Of a stretch of DNA of 64,000 bases, positions 16,229-58,365 are shown one piece after another. The stretch's first letter is position 1. Each line of letters begins with the position of its first letter. This DNA comes from Campylobacteraceae bacterium (GTDB lineage: Bacteria; Campylobacterota; Campylobacteria; Campylobacterales; BB28): contig JADGEE010000001.1 of NCBI GenBank assembly GCA_016744535.1, positions 7,284 to 71,283 of the forward strand, in the 5' to 3' direction. A program made the translations under genes and the position numbers. The notes below the pieces were generated by a model, which saw only the letters and a program-made list of their open reading frames with translations, was not told the origin of the DNA and made no database searches.

Positions 16229-16293
16229 TGTGGTAATCTTAAAAACACTAAAATACAATACTTAAATAAATGATAATAAAAGGAGAAAAAGAG

Positions 16294-17547
16294 ATGAAAA
16301 AAGTTTTACTTTCGGCTTTAGCTTGTGGCTATTTAGTTGCAGGAATTAATGATGGTTTAGTTGTACACTATGAATTTGAGGGAAATGCAAATGATAGTAG
16401 TGGAAATGGTAATAATGGAACTGAATATGGTGGAGTTGAATATGTAGATGGAATTATGGGAAAAGCTGGAAGTTTTGATGGGGTAGGTAGTTATATTCGT
16501 AAAAACAATTTTTCTATCAATATAAAAAATGATTTTACAATATCTACATGGATAAATACAAATGAAAATCCTGAATGGTACAATCCAATTTTTTCTATAC
16601 ATTCAGGTGAAGAAGGTTTTGCAAATTATGGGGATAAACATATTAGTCTATGGTTATCTGAACCATTAAGAGTAATTGGCTATCAAACTCCAAAAAATGA
16701 AGATAACGGTAATTATTCTCAAGCTGAAATTTCAAATATTAATACTTGGTATCACATTATTTATACAGAAGTAGATGGTATTCAAAAAATTTATATTAAT
16801 GGAATTGATACAACTTCTAATAAAAAAAGAGATACAGAAAGCGGATTAATTATAAGCAATGGTTTTTTAGAAATAGGAGCACCTAACTTTTGGGGTAATA
16901 ATGGAGGTTGGAGTGAAAATGGAAGAGGAAAAAAATGGAATGGTCTTATTGACGATTTAAGAATCTATGACCGTGCATTAAGTGAAGATGAAATAAAAGA
17001 GCTTTACTACTTAAAAAATTGTGAATGTAATACTCAAACTTCAACTTGTGATGAGAGTAAAATTTATTCTCAAGATGAGTTAGATTCTAAAATTTTAGAA
17101 GCAAAAAATGAGATGAAAAGTTATTGCGAAAATAATCCTAGTGAATGTGGAATTATGCCTGAAACTTCAAACACTACAAACGAAACTACTTCAAATATAG
17201 ACTCTAAAGATGTGAAATTAGAGTTAAGGGCTGGTTGGAATTTAGTCTCAATACCTGGTTATACTCCTTACTCTATTGATAAACTTTTTGCACCTGAAGA
17301 GGAGATGGCTATTGTTTCAAATATAAAAAGTGTTTTTGCTTTTGATGTTGAACAAGGCGGATGGCTTAGTTATGTACCAGGAAATAGAGATAATAGCTTG
17401 ATAAATTTATACCCTGGTCAGGGCTTTTGGGTAAATAATAAATATAATATGAGTTATGAATTTAATGGTGAAGTTCAAATAGAGAGTTTAACTTATAAAG
17501 GCGATGGTTTAGGCAATGTTGATGTGCCTCCAGTTGTTGGAAATTAA
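16294..17547 (+). CDS. secreted LamG/concanavalin-A-like lectin-fold protein with Cys-rich linker and a C-terminal domain shared with the next gene
   Basis: Signal peptide MKKVLLSALACG. LamG-type block WNGLIDDLRIYDRALSEDEIKELY. The ATG at 16294 follows an AAAGGAG SD, which I prefer over 16270. Confidence 0.7.
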   Translation: MKKVLLSALACGYLVAGINDGLVVHYEFEGNANDSSGNGNNGTEYGGVEYVDGIMGKAGSFDGVGSYIRKNNFSINIKNDFTISTWINTNENPEWYNPIFSIHSGEEGFANYGDKHISLWLSEPLRVIGYQTPKNEDNGNYSQAEISNINTWYHIIYTEVDGIQKIYINGIDTTSNKKRDTESGLIISNGFLEIGAPNFWGNNGGWSENGRGKKWNGLIDDLRIYDRALSEDEIKELYYLKNCECNTQTSTCDESKIYSQDELDSKILEAKNEMKSYCENNPSECGIMPETSNTTNETTSNIDSKDVKLELRAGWNLVSIPGYTPYSIDKLFAPEEEMAIVSNIKSVFAFDVEQGGWLSYVPGNRDNSLINLYPGQGFWVNNKYNMSYEFNGEVQIESLTYKGDGLGNVDVPPVVGN

Positions 17548-17570
17548 ATTATAATAAAAAGGGCGATTTT

Positions 17571-18053
17571 ATGAAAAAAATATTATTAAGTGTAATGCTT
17601 TTAAGTTCAATATTTGCAAGTGATGATTTTCCACCACAGATACCAACTTCAGGTGCAACTCAAACAGAAGGAACAGCTACTGATGGTGTCTCTAAAACTT
17701 CAATTGTAAAAATAGGTATTAAAGTTGGTTGGAATTTAGTTGGCTTACCTGGTTATAGTGCATATACGGTAGAGGATTTATTTGCACCACAAACAGTTGG
17801 AGGAATGGCTATAGTTTCAGGAATTGAGAGCGTTTTTGCTTTTGATGTTGAGTCAGGAAGTTGGAAGACTTATGTACCTGGAAATAGAGATAATTCACTT
17901 ACAAAATTAACACCAGGTCAAGGCTTTTGGATAAAAGCAAAATATAATGGTGGTTACGGATTTAATTCAGGTGTAGAGTTAAAAAATAGAGAGAGTGCTG
18001 AATTTACTGATGGCTCAAATATTGGAACTCTTCCACCAACTATTTGGAAATAA
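17571..18053 (+). CDS. small secreted protein consisting of the shared about 90-aa C-terminal domain
   Basis: Signal peptide. GWNLVGLPGY...VFAFDVESGSWKTYVPGNRDNSL...PGQGFWIK parallels residues in the C-terminus of the LamG protein. Confidence 0.6.
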   Translation: MKKILLSVMLLSSIFASDDFPPQIPTSGATQTEGTATDGVSKTSIVKIGIKVGWNLVGLPGYSAYTVEDLFAPQTVGGMAIVSGIESVFAFDVESGSWKTYVPGNRDNSLTKLTPGQGFWIKAKYNGGYGFNSGVELKNRESAEFTDGSNIGTLPPTIWK

Positions 18054-18157: not shown

Positions 18158-19159
18158 TTGATAGCAATTACAGGCGGTGGAACTGGTGGGCATTTAAAAA
18201 TTGCAAAATCTATAAAAGATGAATTTAACAAAAGAGATATAAAACCTATTTTTATCGGTTCAAGTTATGGACAAGACAAAACTTGGTTTGAAAATGATAA
18301 CGGTTTTAGTAAAAAATATTTTTTTGATACAAAAGGTGTTGTAAATCAAAATTTTATGGGTAAATTCAACTCTTTAGGCAAAATTTACAAAGCTATGAAT
18401 GAAGTTAAAAAAATATTTAATGAAAATAATATCACAAAAGTTTTTAGTGTTGGTGGCTACTCTTCAGCACCAGCAAGTTTCGCCTCAATTTTAACAAAAA
18501 GAGAACTTTTTATTCACGAACAAAATGCAATTATAGGTAAATCAAACAGACTCTTAAAACCATTTGCAAAAGAGTTTATCTCTTCATATTTTGATTCCAA
18601 AGTTAAAGATTATCCAATTGATGAAAATTTTTTTAAGAGTGCAAGAGTTAGAAAAGAAGTTAAAACTATTATATTTTTAGGTGGAAGCCAAGGGGCAAGA
18701 CACATAAACTCATTTGCTTTGCATATTGCAAAAGATTTAGAAAAGATGGGGATAAAAATTATACATCAAACAGGTGATAGTGATTTTTTAAGAGTAAAAG
18801 AGGCTTATGAAGAGATGGGAATTTTTGCAGATGTATTTAATTTTCATAAAAATTTAATAGAGAAAATTTCTGAGGCTGATTTTGCAATTTCAAGAGCTGG
18901 GGCTTCAACTCTTTGGGAACTTGTAGCCAATCAAGTTCCCACTCTATTTATTCCATACCCATACGCTGCAAAAGACCATCAATACCATAATGCTAAATTT
19001 TTAGCTGATAAAGAGTTGTGTTTTTTAAAACGAGAAGATGAGTTAAAAGAGGATTTTATATTTAAAATTTTAGAGAGTGATTTATCAAAAATTAGTAAAA
19101 ATTTACAAAATGAAATTTCTCCAAATGGAGCAAAAGAGATAGTAAATTTAATTTTATAA
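18158..19159 (+). CDS. murG: UDP-N-acetylglucosamine--N-acetylmuramyl-(pentapeptide) pyrophosphoryl-undecaprenol GlcNAc transferase
   Basis: N-terminal ITGGGTGGHL. GGSQGA. SRAGASTLWEL. TTG start. Confidence 0.9.
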   Translation: MIAITGGGTGGHLKIAKSIKDEFNKRDIKPIFIGSSYGQDKTWFENDNGFSKKYFFDTKGVVNQNFMGKFNSLGKIYKAMNEVKKIFNENNITKVFSVGGYSSAPASFASILTKRELFIHEQNAIIGKSNRLLKPFAKEFISSYFDSKVKDYPIDENFFKSARVRKEVKTIIFLGGSQGARHINSFALHIAKDLEKMGIKIIHQTGDSDFLRVKEAYEEMGIFADVFNFHKNLIEKISEADFAISRAGASTLWELVANQVPTLFIPYPYAAKDHQYHNAKFLADKELCFLKREDELKEDFIFKILESDLSKISKNLQNEISPNGAKEIVNLIL

Positions 19160-21697
19160 TTTTCCTACCACTTCCTCACAAACTTGGATAACTTCATTAA
19201 ACTCTTGTGATTTTTTATATCTATTTTCAATATAGGCAAACTTTTCACTCTCAATTTTTGCAATATTTGAATTTACAAAACTTTTGAGTTTTTTGCCACT
19301 CTCTAAATCATTTTTAATCGCTTGAATTTGATACTCAATTGAGTGTTTAAATGGCTCTTCGATTTTGACAGCTTTTAAGACAATATTATTTAAGATAAAT
19401 TCAAGTGAATTAATATCCTCATTTAACTCATCTTTCACCTCTTTATAATTAAGTGCTACTTGTGCATTTTTAATTAATCCCTCTAGTGCATTTTCAATTG
19501 AGCTATCAATTAAATTTTGAAGTTCATTTAAATTATCTTCACTCATATTTTTAAGCATTGCAGGGGAGTTAAATATGTTTTTAATAACTTTTTTAATAGA
19601 TAATTTTTTATCATTTATAGTTTTTGCTAAATCTTCTTTAAATTTTTTAAATCCCTCATCTTCACCATCTTCAACTTTAAATAAGTCTTTTAATGAATTA
19701 TCTAATCTTTTTTTAATCTCTTCTATATCAACTAAACTCTCTTGAATTAATAATCTTTTCACTAAATCTTGTTCAAAAAATTCTAACTCTTCATTATAAT
19801 TTTTATCAAAAATCATAATTGATTCTATATTTTTTTGAGATTTTAAAAACTTATTAACTCTTGTCCCCTCAAATTTATCTGTAATTGGATTTAATATTAA
19901 AATCTCTAAAATATCATTTGCAAAACGGCTAATAAGTGGAGTGTATGACTTTTTATCATAAGAAAAATCTCCAACTAACTCATCAATTTTAAGGCTTAAT
20001 TTCTCTTTTACTTTTTGTAGTGTTGGGAGAGATTTATCTCCACAAAGTACACTATTTATTAAATTTTTAATTTTATTTTGAATTTCACCATTTTTTTCAA
20101 TTGCAATAGTTGAGCAAATTTCAATAAATCCATTTACAGAGTTTTTATAAAGTTCATCTCTAATATTTGCATTTACTTTTTCAGGTTGCTGGGTTTTAAT
20201 ACTTCCACTTGCTAATCTATTGTGATGATGATTTATAATTTCATCTGTAATCAAAAGTTTAGGAATCCAATCGCTTGAAATTTTTTCTGAAATTAGTTTA
20301 TCAACTTGATATGCTTTAGAGTTCATATCATTTGATAGCTCATTTAAACTTTGAATTAAAATATCTCTCTTAGGTAACCAAAATTCATCTACAAAATTTA
20401 ACATTTGACCAGATAAATTATCATCATTATTCTCATCTATTTTATTTTGCTCTAAAAATAGAGTTAAAAACTGTTTAATATCAGCAATTAATTTATTTAA
20501 AATATTTACTAAAATATTAAATCTGTCGTAGTTAAAAAATTGATTTAATCTCTCTAACATAGCTTCAATACCACTCTCTAACTCTAAAATTTTCATTTTA
20601 GAAATACTACTTTTAGAGTCAATTACTTGTTGTGATTCTAAATATGCTAAAGGTGAGCCAAAAAATATATTATTTTCATTAAAGATTTTATATTTAAGCA
20701 ACTCATTTTTTAATAGCTCTTTATACTCATTAATTTCACTTAAACTTTTATTTTTATCAATTCCATTCCCGTCAAACGCGATGTGTACATCAATTTTATT
20801 TCCAAAAACAAGCATTTTATCAGCTAAAGATTGCCCATACTCATCTTGAACAGAGTTTAAAACATCAATTTGACTCTTTACAAAGCTAACCCTATCGGCA
20901 ATAGATATGACGAATAAAACCGCATCAGCGTCTATCATTTTATCAATTGCTTGTTTTTTATGAAGTTTTGTAGGAGAATCAAACCCAGGGACATCATAAA
21001 GGATTAAATCATTTAAGCCTTTTAAGTTTGAAGATTTAATTGAAATCTCTTTTACAGCTCTTGCAATCTCCTCTTTTACGATATATTCCCTAATATCCTC
21101 TTTTAAATTAGCACCCTCTAATTTTAATTTTTTGGCATCTAAATATCTATTTAAATCATCTCTTTTAGCAATAATAGAATTTATATCATCTAGGGTATCA
21201 CTTCTTGAAATCTCTTCATATCGTCTTGGGTCTGTTTGAGAGAGTGCATTTAAATGATTTTCAATATCCTCTAAACTCAAACTATCAAATTTTGCACCAC
21301 TAAACTCTATATAATCAAGTAAATCATTGAATTTTTTAACAAATTCATCTTTTGTAAAAAATTCAACTTCTGCAATATCATCATTTGAGGCTTCAACGAT
21401 TGTTGTTGTAAATGTACATCTCTGTTTTGCTTCAGGTAAAAAATCTGCTTTCATTAAAGCATTTGCAAAAGTGCTTTTGCCAGCTTTCTCTAATCCAACA
21501 ATAGCCACTTCAAATTTATCTTTTTTAAGTTTATCTATATATCTATCAATTTGTTTTTTATATCTATTTGCTTCAACTTCAATATTACTCTCACTAAATT
21601 GTAAAAATGTACTTTTTATATGAAGTATATAATCTATCGCTTTTTTAGAATCCTCTAATTTATCTATATATCTATCTCTATCTTCTTGCCAATTCAT
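19154..21697 (-). CDS. bacterial dynamin-like GTPase (847 aa)
   Basis: G1 VGLEKAGKSTFANAL. G3 LYDVPGF. G4 FGNKIDV. A long helical C-terminal region and no TM segment. Its stop overlaps the murG stop tail-to-tail by 6 bp. Confidence 0.8.
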   Translation of the reverse strand: MNWQEDRDRYIDKLEDSKKAIDYILHIKSTFLQFSESNIEVEANRYKKQIDRYIDKLKKDKFEVAIVGLEKAGKSTFANALMKADFLPEAKQRCTFTTTIVEASNDDIAEVEFFTKDEFVKKFNDLLDYIEFSGAKFDSLSLEDIENHLNALSQTDPRRYEEISRSDTLDDINSIIAKRDDLNRYLDAKKLKLEGANLKEDIREYIVKEEIARAVKEISIKSSNLKGLNDLILYDVPGFDSPTKLHKKQAIDKMIDADAVLFVISIADRVSFVKSQIDVLNSVQDEYGQSLADKMLVFGNKIDVHIAFDGNGIDKNKSLSEINEYKELLKNELLKYKIFNENNIFFGSPLAYLESQQVIDSKSSISKMKILELESGIEAMLERLNQFFNYDRFNILVNILNKLIADIKQFLTLFLEQNKIDENNDDNLSGQMLNFVDEFWLPKRDILIQSLNELSNDMNSKAYQVDKLISEKISSDWIPKLLITDEIINHHHNRLASGSIKTQQPEKVNANIRDELYKNSVNGFIEICSTIAIEKNGEIQNKIKNLINSVLCGDKSLPTLQKVKEKLSLKIDELVGDFSYDKKSYTPLISRFANDILEILILNPITDKFEGTRVNKFLKSQKNIESIMIFDKNYNEELEFFEQDLVKRLLIQESLVDIEEIKKRLDNSLKDLFKVEDGEDEGFKKFKEDLAKTINDKKLSIKKVIKNIFNSPAMLKNMSEDNLNELQNLIDSSIENALEGLIKNAQVALNYKEVKDELNEDINSLEFILNNIVLKAVKIEEPFKHSIEYQIQAIKNDLESGKKLKSFVNSNIAKIESEKFAYIENRYKKSQEFNEVIQVCEEVVGKL

Positions 21698-21720
21698 TTT
21701 TTACCTTTAAAAAAATTCTT

Positions 21721-23040
21721 TTATTTTCCATTTATATTTACAAGTGCTGTTTTAGCTTCAGCTATTAAAACTTTTTCATTTTTTGTTATGGATGCTTCAT
21801 AAAATTTTTTACCATACTTTGATGTTATATCTAAATCTTTACTTACATAATTTTCAACTAAATCAAACCAATTATCTAATACATATTTATTTGATAATTT
21901 ACTTAAAACATACTCATTTTCTATAATTAAAGTATTAAAAAAATACTCCCACTGTTTTTGAGTGATTTTTGGTAAAATCTCTTTTAAATAAGTTTTTGCA
22001 CTTCTAGAGTGACCATATTGATTACCCAAGTAAGAGAGTATTATGGCTGTTATAGTATCTTCAAAAGCCATATCAGGGATAATTGAACCCATTTGGCTTA
22101 ATTTTTTAGTATAAGGAAATTCCTCATAAAAATTATTAAAATTAAAATGAGCAGAAATCAACTGCTTAGCTACTCTTGCATAACTATTTGAACGAGTTGT
22201 TTCAGGAACAAAATCAAAGCCTTTTGTATTTTCTAATACATTAATTAATGTATTAAAAATAGTTTTATTTCCCTCACTTATAGCCATAGCATAAGTTTTA
22301 CCAATTAACTTTTTGTCTTCTATAAATAGTTTATCCCATAAAGCTATTAAGAAAATTTGAGTATTATTTAACGCAATCTCTCTCTCTCCACCCTCTAATG
22401 TTTTTATTAAATTAAGTAGTGTTCTAACAATTGTTTTAATATAAAAATATGGAGAGGTTTTTAGAGTTTCAATCTCTTGTGAATCACTTTTAAATACTAC
22501 TGTTTTCAAGTTTTCTCTGAATTTTATAAAATCTAAACTTGTATCTTCTAATTTTTTTCCTAAAATATATTTAGTTAAATCAAGAATAATATTTAGAGCT
22601 TTAAGAATATTTATCTCTTCTACTTCTTCATTTGAGTTCTCATCATTTACATTAATATCAATATAGTGTCTTATTATTTCATAACTATGTGTTAATTCTA
22701 ATTTTGCAGTAGAATTTATTATTCCAAGTTCAAAAGCTAAATTTATCTTTTCAATTGGAGAAATTTCATCCATTGAATTTAAATAATCTCTTCCAACCAT
22801 TTCAGCAATAAAATCTAATCCAAAAGATAAAATTTTTTTTTCTAATAAATTTATAGCCCTATTCCAAGCATACTCTATTGCTATATCATAAAATCCACTA
22901 TTAAATGAATTTACTATTTTAGAAATATTTTTTTGATTTAAAGCTACTATATAATTTGATATAGCTTCAATACTTCCTTGTTCATTGTTTGGAATTAAAA
23001 TTGCTTTTGAGTTTTCCCATAAAACTATATTATTGCTCAT
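21721..23040 (-). CDS. 439-aa helix-rich protein of unknown function (middle gene of the DAC-like/dynamin module)
   Basis: Long uninterrupted ORF. Its ATG is embedded in the last codons of the upstream gene (11-nt overlap). I recognise no motif. Confidence 0.6.
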   Translation of the reverse strand: MSNNIVLWENSKAILIPNNEQGSIEAISNYIVALNQKNISKIVNSFNSGFYDIAIEYAWNRAINLLEKKILSFGLDFIAEMVGRDYLNSMDEISPIEKINLAFELGIINSTAKLELTHSYEIIRHYIDINVNDENSNEEVEEINILKALNIILDLTKYILGKKLEDTSLDFIKFRENLKTVVFKSDSQEIETLKTSPYFYIKTIVRTLLNLIKTLEGGEREIALNNTQIFLIALWDKLFIEDKKLIGKTYAMAISEGNKTIFNTLINVLENTKGFDFVPETTRSNSYARVAKQLISAHFNFNNFYEEFPYTKKLSQMGSIIPDMAFEDTITAIILSYLGNQYGHSRSAKTYLKEILPKITQKQWEYFFNTLIIENEYVLSKLSNKYVLDNWFDLVENYVSKDLDITSKYGKKFYEASITKNEKVLIAEAKTALVNINGK

Positions 23041-24076
23041 CTTTTATCTCCTCAAAAAAAGAGTATCCATCTTCTGATTGAAAATATACACCCAACAAAC
23101 CTTTAGCATTAGATTTAATTATTTTATGTGTTGCCCTTGTTCTTGAACCACCAACAATAGTATCTTTTGATTCGTTTTTATCATCAATGAAGATATTAAA
23201 ACCTAATATTTCACCTTTAGAACTAAGAAGTGTAACACCATCTATATCAACAGCCCTAGAGAGTACCCCTATCATACTATAATATTTTTCAGATATATTA
23301 CTTTGATTTAATTCTAAACAACTACTTTGATAATTTTCAAACTCTTGATAAAGATTAATTGGTTCTTCTAAAATAATACCATTTATAAAATAATAATCTA
23401 TTGGTTGGTTTGAATCTACAATAGTTATAATTGTACCGTGAATTTTTTCAAAATTAAAATAGAGATAGTTTTTTATATTATCTTGAAATTGTTTCAAACT
23501 GTTTTTATCTTTTAAATCTTTAGTAAAACAATCTACCAACTTGATAATATTCTCTTTTCTTGAATCTTTGATTTCTCTTTTTGTTATACTTAAATTTAAA
23601 TATAAATTATGAATCTCTTTATCTTTTTTAACTTGAATTTCAACAATGTTTTTATCTATTTTTTTTACTTTAAAAGCTATTATTCTAGGAGTATCCATAA
23701 TTGTAAGTGAATTTATTCCTGCAAAGTTTTTTAATATTCCATACTCTACTTCTTTATCGTAAAAAGATATATATATTTTCCAACCATTATTGCAAAATGG
23801 AGCAAATGACTTTATCTTTTTTCTTATATTCATATTATTTAAAGTTTCATTGGCTAATTTAATCTTTTTATAACTTTTTGATTTTTCTAAAACTTTATCA
23901 ATATCAAGAATAACTATTAAATCAATATTTATTTTTTCACTCTCTTCTTCGTAATGAAATATTGATGGTAAAAATTCATAAAATTGGTCCAAAAATTCTT
24001 TTGATATCACATCATTTTTAATGATTGTTGCAAATAAATTTTGAAATTCATTAAAATAAACTATTTGATTATTCAT
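23030..24076 (-). CDS. 348-aa protein with C-terminal DisA_N/diadenylate-cyclase-like fold carrying non-canonical catalytic motifs
   Basis: HGTIITIV, DIDGVTLLSSKGEILGFNIFI, GGSRTRATHKI and GVYFQSEDGYSFF appear in the order of the DAC blocks GALIV / DGA / RHR / VSEE-G-IS. The start lies 9 nt after the ribE stop, with an AAGGGGA SD. Confidence 0.5.
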   Translation of the reverse strand: MNNQIVYFNEFQNLFATIIKNDVISKEFLDQFYEFLPSIFHYEEESEKINIDLIVILDIDKVLEKSKSYKKIKLANETLNNMNIRKKIKSFAPFCNNGWKIYISFYDKEVEYGILKNFAGINSLTIMDTPRIIAFKVKKIDKNIVEIQVKKDKEIHNLYLNLSITKREIKDSRKENIIKLVDCFTKDLKDKNSLKQFQDNIKNYLYFNFEKIHGTIITIVDSNQPIDYYFINGIILEEPINLYQEFENYQSSCLELNQSNISEKYYSMIGVLSRAVDIDGVTLLSSKGEILGFNIFIDDKNESKDTIVGGSRTRATHKIIKSNAKGLLGVYFQSEDGYSFFEEIKDEQ

Positions 24077-24085
24077 TTGTTCCCC

Positions 24086-24697
24086 TTAATAACTCGCCAT
24101 TATTTTATCTACATCAACCCAACTAAGTTTTTTATCTTTATTCATAAACATATGATGTACATATCTTGCAAACATATCAGTTTCAATATTTAGTCTGCTT
24201 TTTACTTTATAATTTTTAAAAAGAGAATTTTGCATAGTATGAGGAATAATCGTTAGTTTAAAAGCATCTTCATAAACTGCATTAATAGTTAAACTTATTC
24301 CGTCAATTGCTATACTTCCCTTTGGAATAATAAATTTTATATAATTTTTTGGGACTTTTATGTGAAAATCATAAGAGTTTTCATTTTTGATAATTTTATC
24401 AATTACTCCTACACAATCGATATGTCCTTGAATTAAATGACCCTCTATTCTATCGCTTAGTCTCATTGCAGGTTCAATATGAACTAAATTTTTATAATTC
24501 TCAATTGCTAAAACACTCTGACTTTCAGGAGAAAGCTCCACACTAAAGCCACTCTCATCAAATTTAACAACAGTTAAACAAGCCCCATTCACAGCTATAC
24601 TATCGCCTATTTTTGGCTTGTGCTTAGCTTTTATAGTTAAAAGCACTCCATCAAAACTTTGAACTTTTGCAATTTCTCTAATCAATCCATTAAACAT
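24086..24697 (-). CDS. ribE: riboflavin synthase (alpha chain)
   Basis: MFNGLIREIAKV...GDSIAVNGACLTV...GSIAIDGISLT shows the duplicated lumazine-binding repeats. Confidence 0.9.
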   Translation of the reverse strand: MFNGLIREIAKVQSFDGVLLTIKAKHKPKIGDSIAVNGACLTVVKFDESGFSVELSPESQSVLAIENYKNLVHIEPAMRLSDRIEGHLIQGHIDCVGVIDKIIKNENSYDFHIKVPKNYIKFIIPKGSIAIDGISLTINAVYEDAFKLTIIPHTMQNSLFKNYKVKSRLNIETDMFARYVHHMFMNKDKKLSWVDVDKIMASY

Positions 24698-24765
24698 TCA
24701 ATAACTCTCTATTTATATTTTTAATTTAAGTTTAACATTTTTTACTTTTTTTTAACATCAAACAC

Positions 24766-24795
24766 TTGACAATATTTTACTAAACTTGATATGAT
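24766..24795 (+). promoter_or_regulatory. sigma70-like promoter for the Hsp20 gene
   Basis: TTGACA at 24766-24771, an 18-nt spacer, then TATGAT at 24790-24795. AGGAGG SD before the ATG at 24830. Confidence 0.35.
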
Positions 24796-24829
24796 TTTTA
24801 TATCTTATATTTATTATTAGGAGGATTAA

Positions 24830-26575: not shown

Positions 26576-26941
26576 TTATTTTATTTTTTGTCCACACTCA
26601 AATAGACACTCTTCAAGAAGATTAATTTTATCACTTTTCACTGCTTTTTTATAAACGACTTTAAAAATATCAAGCACATCTTCATCAATTTCAATATTGC
26701 TATTTTTATCTTTTTTAGAATTTAAAAACATTTCACCTTTACCAGTTAAAAGCCAATGTATATCTATATTCAATTTTTTATGCAATATATCAATAATTTT
26801 TGAAGGAAGCTCAATTTTTTTATTTTCATAATTAGAAATCATATCTTGAGATGTATCGAGTTTTTTAGAAAATTCAGTTTGATTTAATCTTAGTTTTTTT
26901 CTTATTTTAGTAAAATTTTCATTTTTATATAATAAATCCAT
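26576..26941 (-). CDS. XRE/cI-like HTH regulator
   Basis: HTH KLRLNQTEFSKKLDTSQDMISNYE followed by the HWLLTGKGE signature common in phage-repressor-like N-domains. Confidence 0.75.
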   Translation of the reverse strand: MDLLYKNENFTKIRKKLRLNQTEFSKKLDTSQDMISNYENKKIELPSKIIDILHKKLNIDIHWLLTGKGEMFLNSKKDKNSNIEIDEDVLDIFKVVYKKAVKSDKINLLEECLFECGQKIK

Positions 26942-58288: not shown

Positions 58289-58365
58289 GCGGGAATAGCT
58301 CAGCTGGCTAGAGCATCAGCCTTCCAAGCTGAGGGTCGCCGGTTCGAATCCGGTTTCCCGCTCCA
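58289..58365 (+). tRNA. tRNA-Gly (anticodon UCC), CCA encoded
   Basis: GCGGGAA acceptor stem pairing with TTCCCGC. D-arm AGCTCAGCTGGCTAGAGC. Anticodon loop CTTCCAA. T-arm GGTTCGAATCC. 3' TCCA. Confidence 0.9.

Follow-up and report, generated by a model that had tools for sequence, protein, structure and literature searches.

Diadenylate cyclase (DAC) domains were, until August 2026, the one remaining major fold of nucleotide cyclases to which no role in immunity had been assigned. In that month two preprints (bioRxiv 10.64898/2026.08.10.743972 and 10.64898/2026.08.10.743927) reported the first experimental DAC domains in anti-phage defence, and they described two kinds of systems, namely, a minimal DAC, PanS, together with PanE, a protein of the two-transmembrane (2TM)-beta type (PanDA/Panoptoo), and DS-2C/CdaG, a protein of about 550 aa with domains named DACNG and DACNH. 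The locus that we describe here encodes a protein with a predicted DAC fold. It lies in a stretch of 64,000 nucleotides of the genome of a Campylobacteraceae bacterium (assembly GCA_016744535.1, contig JADGEE010000001.1, positions 7,284 to 71,283), and this whole stretch is called the window below. In the window three open reading frames (ORFs) on the minus strand lie between ribE and murG, and they are referred to here as gene A (348 aa, 23030..24076), gene B (439 aa, 21721..23040), and the gene for a dynamin-like protein (DLP; 847 aa, 19154..21697). The original prediction regarded the three genes as a single module. Our analysis led to a different unit, in that the conserved unit is A plus B, a translationally coupled and near-obligate pair. 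We think that, on balance, the real unit at this locus is probably a horizontally acquired two-gene A-B cassette, lying between ribE and a resident DLP gene, and that this cassette is an accessory nucleotide-signalling system of conflict or defence.

The evidence for the pair comes from loci in other genomes. One genome per species was scanned (185,579 genomes) with an alignment of B, and not of A, as the seed, and relatives of B were found in 147 of these species genomes, in phyla that include Campylobacterota, Bacillota, Bacteroidota, Pseudomonadota, Planctomycetota, Acidobacteriota, Cyanobacteria, and Actinomycetota. When pairing was counted with hidden Markov models (HMMs) for both families on the 87 B loci that were fetched, an A-family ORF was found directly upstream of B in 79 of them, in many phyla. 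Looked at from the side of A, the contexts of A homologs always had a gene of about 435-445 aa that overlapped the end of A, and these genes are B homologs with 33-34% identity; a search with A alone retrieved exactly the two plasmids that hold close B homologs, and in both A sits beside B. The gene calls in homologous A-B pairs overlap by 4-11 nt or abut. In the window the overlap as read from the DNA is 11 nt (23030..23040, minus strand), the start ATG of B sitting within ATGAGCAATAA at the 3' end of A, which is an arrangement of translational coupling.

In a word-indexed search of 5.8 billion proteins, A had only two homologs, of 31% and 25% identity, and none above 31%. This apparent near-uniqueness is an artefact of the index, because an exhaustive HMMER search from the resulting small alignment enlarged the family to 625 cluster representatives at E<=1e-3, with 201 remaining at a threshold of E<=1e-30, and the lengths in this family were almost always ~340-355 aa. 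Among the best 150 listed, nearly all the proteins were about 330-380 aa long and they carried the conserved N-terminal domain that is described below. The A protein of the window had no match in Pfam, NCBIfam or PADLOC even at E<=1 and no sequence match in the Protein Data Bank (PDB). When 120 members of the family were scanned singly, the DAC family of Pfam, PF02457, matched 17 of them with a best E of 1.1e-5 and it was the only Pfam family that recurred; a 164-aa gene 5' of one B homolog was also labelled 'DAC (faint)'. With a profile of the 120 sequences the best PDB sequence match was 2fb5_A, which we take to be a Bacillus cereus CdaS-type DAC domain, and in this alignment HGtLiaV of the profile was paired with HGALIVV, sDGItvf with HDGAVLV, and GGARkRAfeaL with LGTRHRAAIGL. 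An AlphaFold2 model of A from a 3-sequence alignment reached a predicted local distance difference test (pLDDT) score of only 58, and the model on the 120-sequence alignment had a pLDDT of 92.6 and a predicted template modelling score of 0.86. When the latter model was compared with the PDB by Foldseek, the top eight matches were all DisA or CdaA, seven of them with probabilities of 0.96-1.00 and the eighth with 0.54, and the remaining matches listed had probabilities of 0.11 or less; the same search against BFVD gave nothing meaningful. The recurrence of PF02457, the profile alignment with 2fb5_A and the AlphaFold2/Foldseek result converge and, therefore, A is DAC-like. As judged from the model and the profiles, the C-terminal 165 aa or so of A (residues ~185-348; 23033..23524, minus strand) is a diadenylate-cyclase fold of the DisA_N type. 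The original prediction had recognized this fold by eye from four blocks, HGTIITIV, DIDGVTLL..KGEILGFNIFI, GGSRTRATHKI, and YFQSEDGYSFF; all of them are present and the 2fb5 profile alignment is the same as that reading.

The fold being that of the canonical DACs (DisA, CdaA, and CdaS; PF02457), with the motif blocks in the same order, the question is how much of the active site is left in A. The equivalent of the DGA motif is D279-G280-V281-T282 (23231..23242, minus strand), which aligns with HDGAVLV of 2fb5 and has the family consensus DG[IV]T. In the 120 family members D279 is found in all and G280 in 119, and position 281 is Ile in 96, Val in 17 and Ala in 4. The equivalent of GTRHRAA is G309-G-S-R312-T-R314-A315 (23132..23152, minus strand), which aligns with LGTRHRAAIGL and has the consensus GGAR[TKSR]RA; here G310 and R312 are found in all 120, position 314 is Arg in 101 and Lys in 15, and position 313 is Thr, Lys, Ser or Arg, no His having been seen in the 120. 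A third block, S334-E-D336-G337 (23066..23077, minus strand; consensus SQDG), is the probable counterpart of the DAC Ser/Glu block, the equivalence being inferred from position alone, and in it S334 is kept in 111 members, D336 is Asp in 108 and Glu in 10, and G337 is kept in 118. Thus A keeps the Asp-Gly of DGA, the Arg pair of RHR and the Ser/acid block of the canonical enzymes, from which it differs by Ile or Val in place of the Ala and by Thr, Lys, Ser or Arg in place of the His, and by being below the Pfam threshold. In the strict sense neither motif is present: DGA is DGV in the window and mostly DG[IV] in the family, and RHR is RTR in the window with the His absent family-wide. Comparison across the family indicates strict purifying selection on the residues equivalent to the active site, which have the non-canonical form DG[IV]T, GGAR-x-RA, and SQDG, and because the strict conservation falls where DACs contact phosphate, ribose or metal it points to a functional nucleotide site in A. 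A also differs from the canonical DACs in its domain context and in a distribution that is patchy, mobile and includes Campylobacterota. To our knowledge, Campylobacterota generally lack DACs.

These substitutions were the basis on which the original prediction suggested that A is a degenerate binder or sensor. That suggestion now looks weak, as the altered motifs are family-wide and strongly conserved and as PanS, a defence cyclase that is active, has DGF and GGR in the corresponding positions and loses synthesis when they are mutated (August 2026 preprint). Since PanS is active with DGF, a strict DGA is not required for activity. We also considered a related explanation in which A is a catalytically dead receptor with a DAC fold and B is the effector, the two forming a toxin-antitoxin or abortive-infection pair that makes no signal. 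The family-wide loss of the RHR His and of the DGA Ala would fit such a receptor, as would the failure of the window protein to match PF02457, the lack of a separate effector in most loci and the occurrence of distant B-like proteins by themselves on small plasmids next to toxin-antitoxin genes, which suggests that B can act autonomously. However, the Asp, both Arg and the Ser/Asp positions that are equivalent to catalytic or phosphate-binding residues are near-invariant, active PanS tolerates DGF, and the third genes of the nucleotide-activated CBASS type that are found in several loci (see below) imply that a diffusible signal is made. We consider a dead receptor unlikely. Given the near-invariance of the catalytic-equivalent residues and the activity of PanS with its own variant motifs, A is more likely to be an active, non-canonical cyclase than a dead binder.

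The N-terminal domain of A (residues ~1-165; 23582..24076, minus strand) is delimited by the secondary structure of the model and by conservation and consists of two helices followed by a mixed alpha/beta part. Y42, E44, E45, P51, K89, P93, W99, and G113 are near-invariant in it, E44 and E45 being found in all 120 members, K89 in 118, and W99 and G113 each in 119. It had no significant fold match in the PDB or BFVD. A degenerate DAC duplicate, as has been said of DACNH, was considered for this domain and was rejected because hhalign against the C-terminal domain gave a probability of 0.2%. Possibly, the N-terminal domain is a sensor or a second active site.

This domain also sets A apart from the DAC proteins of the two described immune systems. 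A-B resembles PanDA/Panoptoo in that it has a DAC-fold protein, in a small accessory operon, with active-site motifs that are non-canonical and yet conserved. The differences are that A, at 348 aa, has a conserved N-terminal domain in addition to its DAC domain, PanS being a DAC-only protein of about 150 aa, that the partner is a 440-aa protein with no transmembrane (TM) segment and no PADLOC effector match whereas PanE is a 2TM-beta (Cap15-like) receptor, and that most A-B loci have no membrane effector. With DS-2C/CdaG (DACNG + DACNH + DAC, about 550-575 aa, in operons of CBASS variants) it shares a multi-domain DAC with uncharacterized N-terminal sequence near defence genes, but A of the window has neither DACNG nor DACNH (of 120 A-family members one matched DACNH, with E=0.057), is about 200 aa shorter, is paired with B, and is not normally inside a CBASS operon, CBASS being the cyclic-oligonucleotide-based antiphage signalling system. 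By its size, domains and partner, all read from the sequences, A-B fits neither the PanDA nor the DS-2C/CdaG class.

The original prediction could name no motif in the 439-aa protein B, and database searches did not change this: no match was found in Pfam, for which 32 members were tried, NCBIfam, PADLOC, or among PDB sequences and profiles. A Death-domain identity was not credible, since only 3 members matched and with E>=0.045. The B family was made up of 76 clusters in the word-indexed search, the closest homolog having 50% identity, and its conserved blocks are LW, EYAW, GxDFIAEM, SPYFYIRT, GFD[FY]VPExxRS, H298 and NNFYNEP, and LGNxYG. What B may do is indicated by the eight loci in which A was not found upstream. 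In seven of these eight, B is fused to an N-terminal Peptidase_C14 caspase (E=5e-14) in a protein of about 700 aa, the AGHG and DACHSG motifs of the caspase are intact, and B makes up the C-terminal 430 aa or so. As in other caspase-sensor fusions, in which Peptidase_C14 is followed by a C-terminal sensor, B is C-terminal in these proteins; in the window, unlike in the fusions, B is a separate protein that is paired with a DAC-fold protein and there is no protease. Since the same module drives a caspase elsewhere, B is, by analogy, most likely a modular sensing or regulatory unit of about 440 aa, and its fusion to intact caspases suggests that it is able to drive different outputs. Caspase-B fusions without an A gene were seen in Clostridia/Lachnospiraceae (L009:7001-9139, L023, L024, L025, L027, L041, L071, and L102), and in C. 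botulinum the element that carries the fusion also encodes a resolvase and a DUF927 primase.

Distant B-like proteins of 466-478 aa (about 22% identity) stand alone on small plasmids of Clostridium perfringens and Acinetobacter beside toxin-antitoxin genes. They were seen in L096:3791-5209 (a 12-kb plasmid of C. perfringens), in L097:3827-5227 (p3AsACE of Acinetobacter schindleri) and in P0078, near HicB, Phd, and MazF. They have a block, 'MRN[WY]ASAAHPN', with a possible Rx6H HEPN-like motif where the A-linked B proteins have 'ELIxHY', and the one in L097 had a weak match to HEPN_RiboL-PSP (E=0.045).

A-B is found on mobile DNA and near defence genes, and no synteny around it is ever conserved. 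A conjugative Agrobacterium plasmid carries it, and four proviral contigs in IMG/VR have relatives of B, three of them as A-B pairs and the fourth as an over-long B ORF without A, which is probably a caspase fusion. On a mobilizable Vibrio plasmid the gene order is helix-turn-helix (HTH)-A-B-204 aa and this lies beside a BsuBI/PstI and Eco57I pair of restriction-modification (RM) genes and IS3. On this plasmid (Vibrio sp. dhg, NZ_CP028945.1; L095:483-3839) the 105-aa HTH protein before A-B matched models of RM control proteins (9.5e-26) and CapH-like proteins (1.2e-6); the 204-aa protein, whose start codon overlaps the stop codon of B, matched no family and was also seen in Vibrio nereis (L066). 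Elsewhere the neighbours of A-B include RM, integrase, Fic, and toxin-antitoxin genes, and it is flanked by some RM/integrase islands. On the 3' side of B there is usually either no gene or an unrelated one (methyltransferases, Mrr, Fic, TniQ, and glycosyltransferases). In a minority of loci this gene encodes a classic effector of nucleotide signalling, which is SLATT_5 in L006, L065 and L072, a 2TM protein of the CBASS type in L046, and a CapV-like patatin in L082. In the latter locus (L082:3033-10839; Sphingobacterium prati NZ_JABJWY010000027.1) a complete type II CBASS operon, comprising the capV patatin, the CD-NTase (1e-122), Cap2 E1-E2 (2e-174) and Cap3 JAB (8e-49), is followed directly by A-B-patatin, and this patatin is a second, paralogous one so that the cassette there has its own CapV-like effector beside CBASS. 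On the 3' side of one metagenomic A-B pair (L001:2794-4691) there is a 270-aa protein with 'HLADLRNLCDHKKE', a possible HEPN Rx4H motif and a weak DUF4145 match (0.057), and there is also a 345-aa SDH_protease (PF01972) gene.

An A-B pair next to a type II CBASS with a patatin effector, or with a 2TM or SLATT third gene, is a further likeness to PanDA, and the arrangement in L082 is the neighbourhood pattern reported for PanDA. This raises the possibility of a decoy of the PanDA/Panoptes kind, in which A would make a nucleotide constitutively that restrains a toxic partner, either B or the SLATT, 2TM or patatin protein, and the toxin would be released when phage sponges or nucleases remove the signal. 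DAC-based systems of this logic were reported in 2026, often beside CBASS operons with patatin or 2TM effectors, and the type II CBASS that immediately precedes A-B-patatin in L082 itself uses a patatin as effector, with 2TM or SLATT genes in L046, L006, and L072. The fit is less good in other respects. A is not a minimal DAC, since it has the conserved 165-aa N-terminal domain, B has no TM segment and is not a 2TM-beta protein, a CBASS-type 2TM gene is present only in L046 and there as a third gene, and adjacency to CBASS was found in only 1 of about 80 loci. The caspase-B fusions, which have no cyclase, are also more easily explained if B is a sensor than if it is a toxin under repression. 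A decoy is, in our judgement, a rather improbable explanation of the pair.

A very different explanation would give A-B a housekeeping or physiological role as a second-messenger module that serves, for example, osmotic or envelope signalling. The flanking genes in the window (ribE, murG, uppP, and hsp20) are housekeeping genes and canonical DACs have physiological roles, both of which would be in line with this explanation. It is, however, extremely improbable, because A-B is in only 147 of the 185,579 species genomes and these belong to scattered phyla, and because it is missing from relatives that have the DLP, occurs on plasmids, in proviruses and beside RM, CBASS and toxin-antitoxin genes, and never has conserved synteny.

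The 847-aa protein encoded by the third gene of the window is a dynamin-like GTPase, just as the original prediction had it. It matched Dynamin_N of Pfam (PF00350) with 51.5 bits against a cut-off of 27 (E=1.5e-13), it has the G1 (GLEKAGKS at 68), G3 (DVPG at 235) and G4 (NKID at 300) motifs, and there is no TM-like segment in it or in A and B, the maximum Kyte-Doolittle mean over 19 residues being 1.1-1.5. In having Dynamin_N, G1/G3/G4 and a long C-terminal region it is like other bacterial DLPs (B. subtilis DynA, cyanobacterial SynDLP/Slr0869, E. coli CrfC, and Eleos LeoA), and its best weak matches were to the DynA, slr1306 and CrfC models and to the Slr0869 structure. DLPs are implicated in phage defence elsewhere. 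Unlike Eleos and the paired DLPs, the DLP of the window is single, has no partner DLP and no LeoA/Eleos match, and is unlinked to A-B outside this genome; in PADLOC its only match was mad8, with E=0.014, and its neighbours A and B had none.

We therefore come back to the original prediction, in which A, B and the DLP are one stress or defence module with a nucleotide-sensing, DAC-like head that controls a membrane-remodelling GTPase. In the window the trio is indeed tightly packed (an 11-nt overlap, a 23-nt gap, and no terminator), and as some A-B loci have a variable, effector-like third gene it is conceivable that the DLP is a lineage-specific effector. Other genomes tell otherwise. A dynamin-like ORF was found in none of the 87 A-B loci, 79 of which have the A-B pair. 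Homologs of the DLP were found at 83, 81, 72, and 70% identity, with hundreds more at about 36%, one of which is named Campylobacterota dynamin family protein. In L093, L094 and L098 the orthologs (81% and 72%) stand alone, each with its own upstream intergenic region and a divergently oriented upstream neighbour, and in these three loci neither A nor B lies within 6-8 kb of the ortholog and ribE and murG are not nearby. As A homologs reach at most 31% and B homologs at most 50% identity, the close relatives of the DLP are without close relatives of A-B, so that no close DLP homolog is accompanied by a close homolog of A or B. A lack of co-inheritance of the three genes was one of the outcomes that the original prediction had named as refuting it, and in the neighbourhoods that we examined A, B and the DLP are not co-inherited. 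For this reason the three-gene module is unsupported, and this, together with the lack of a LeoA/Eleos match, makes it quite improbable. The simplest reading of the sequences is that the DLP gene is a resident gene of the lineage, a neighbour and not a component of the cassette, and that A-B arrived by horizontal transfer and has its present place between ribE and this resident gene. Since the terminator scan found no terminator-like site in the intergenic gaps of ribE-A-B-DLP, it is plausible that the four genes are co-transcribed in this genome, in which case the DLP probably rides on the same transcript as A-B. This serves as a warning in annotation, in that genes may be closely packed and translationally coupled, as here beside a dynamin gene, and this is no evidence that they belong to one system.

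How, then, might the A-B cassette work? A probable course of events is that A-B acts as an accessory conflict or anti-phage system in which B is the sensing or regulatory module and A is the source of a nucleotide signal, or possibly no more than a protein that binds it. The product of A would probably not be plain cyclic di-AMP (c-di-AMP), or else it would be tightly gated, since A-B occurs in Bacillus and Clostridia, which belong to phyla that usually have housekeeping DACs. In loci with a third gene the response would be carried out by CBASS-type effectors (SLATT, 2TM or patatin), and the two-gene forms, such as that of the window, would probably rely for their output on B itself or on nucleotide depletion or toxicity. 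A more specific proposal, which we put forward only tentatively, is that A-B is a third class of DAC-based immune signalling, in which B as the sensor of the invader switches on a non-canonical DAC that makes a nucleotide other than c-di-AMP for SLATT, 2TM or patatin effectors, the two-gene forms killing or arresting the cell by nucleotide depletion or by toxicity of the product. A bolder addition to this would be that the resident dynamin has, in this genome only, been recruited by the cassette as a membrane effector.

Several observations weigh against the A-B cassette being such a system. The defence role is deduced from neighbourhood context by plain tallies, no recognizable effector gene was found in most A-B loci, and the cassette of the window sits among housekeeping genes, outside any defence island. 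On the side of the proteins, the A of the window gave no PF02457 match even at E<=1, the missing RHR His and the replaced DGA Ala across the family make catalysis less certain, and the role proposed for B is drawn from the analogy with the caspase fusions. Finally, the 23-nt spacing of B and the DLP gene, with no terminator between, leaves room for a local functional link between them. With these points taken into account we still regard A-B, from what its sequences suggest, as a good and testable candidate for a new DAC-based system. If this is true, it would add a distinct DAC architecture, in which a non-canonical DAC of two domains is tied to a partner of 440 aa that can instead drive a caspase. 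Neither A nor B is in Pfam, NCBIfam or PADLOC 2.0, and when 60 A and 34 B members were run against PADLOC 2.0 there was no match other than the caspase of a fusion and one marginal JetA (E=2.8e-4). A description of the pair was not found in the searchable literature, which in this search did not take in the DAC census of Galperin 2023 (22 families) and the current DefenseFinder models. The pair bears on whether DAC folds without the RHR His make signals, on how the product would avoid cross-talk with the housekeeping c-di-AMP of Firmicutes, and on what B senses.

The arrangement of the genes in the window, including all the junctions, was as had been claimed, the coordinates and the reading of the DNA being in agreement. 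Between the TAA of ribE and the ATG of A lie 9 nt (GGGGAACAA), the Shine-Dalgarno sequence of A, AAGGGGA, overlapping the ribE stop, and the DLP gene and murG meet tail to tail with 6 bp, TTATAA, in common. The identities given to the two neighbours also held, as the upstream gene (24086..24697, minus strand) is ribE, the riboflavin synthase alpha chain, by a Lum_binding match with E=3.5e-39, and murG has the N- and C-terminal Glyco_transf_28 domains of Pfam. The G+C content of A (22.6%) and B (24.0%) is slightly lower than the 25.7-28.6% of the DLP gene, ribE, and murG, which is in keeping with A-B being separate from the DLP gene. Promoter-like sites were fewer than in shuffled sequence, and the promoter and terminator scans are uninformative at 26% G+C. 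Upstream of ribE (24698-24829) neither an FMN riboswitch nor any other Rfam family was found, the sole Rfam match in the window being a tRNA at 58289-58362 on the plus strand.

Some other features of the window were recorded. An XRE-type HTH protein of 121 aa (LRLNQTEFSKKLDTSQDMISNYENKK) is encoded at 26576-26941 on the minus strand, about 2.5 kb from the cassette, and it may be a remnant of a mobile element or a regulator. A 98-aa ORF with a TTG start on the plus strand (21327-21623), antisense within the DLP gene, is of low complexity and hydrophobic-looking and is almost certainly spurious. At 16270-18053 on the plus strand there are two adjacent genes for predicted secreted proteins of 425 and 160 aa that have in common a C-terminal domain of about 90 aa, GWNLV.LPGY ... 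SVFAFDVE.G.W..YVPGNRDNSL..L.PGQGFW, and the 425-aa protein also has a LamG-like region (LIDDLRIYDRALSEDEIKELY).

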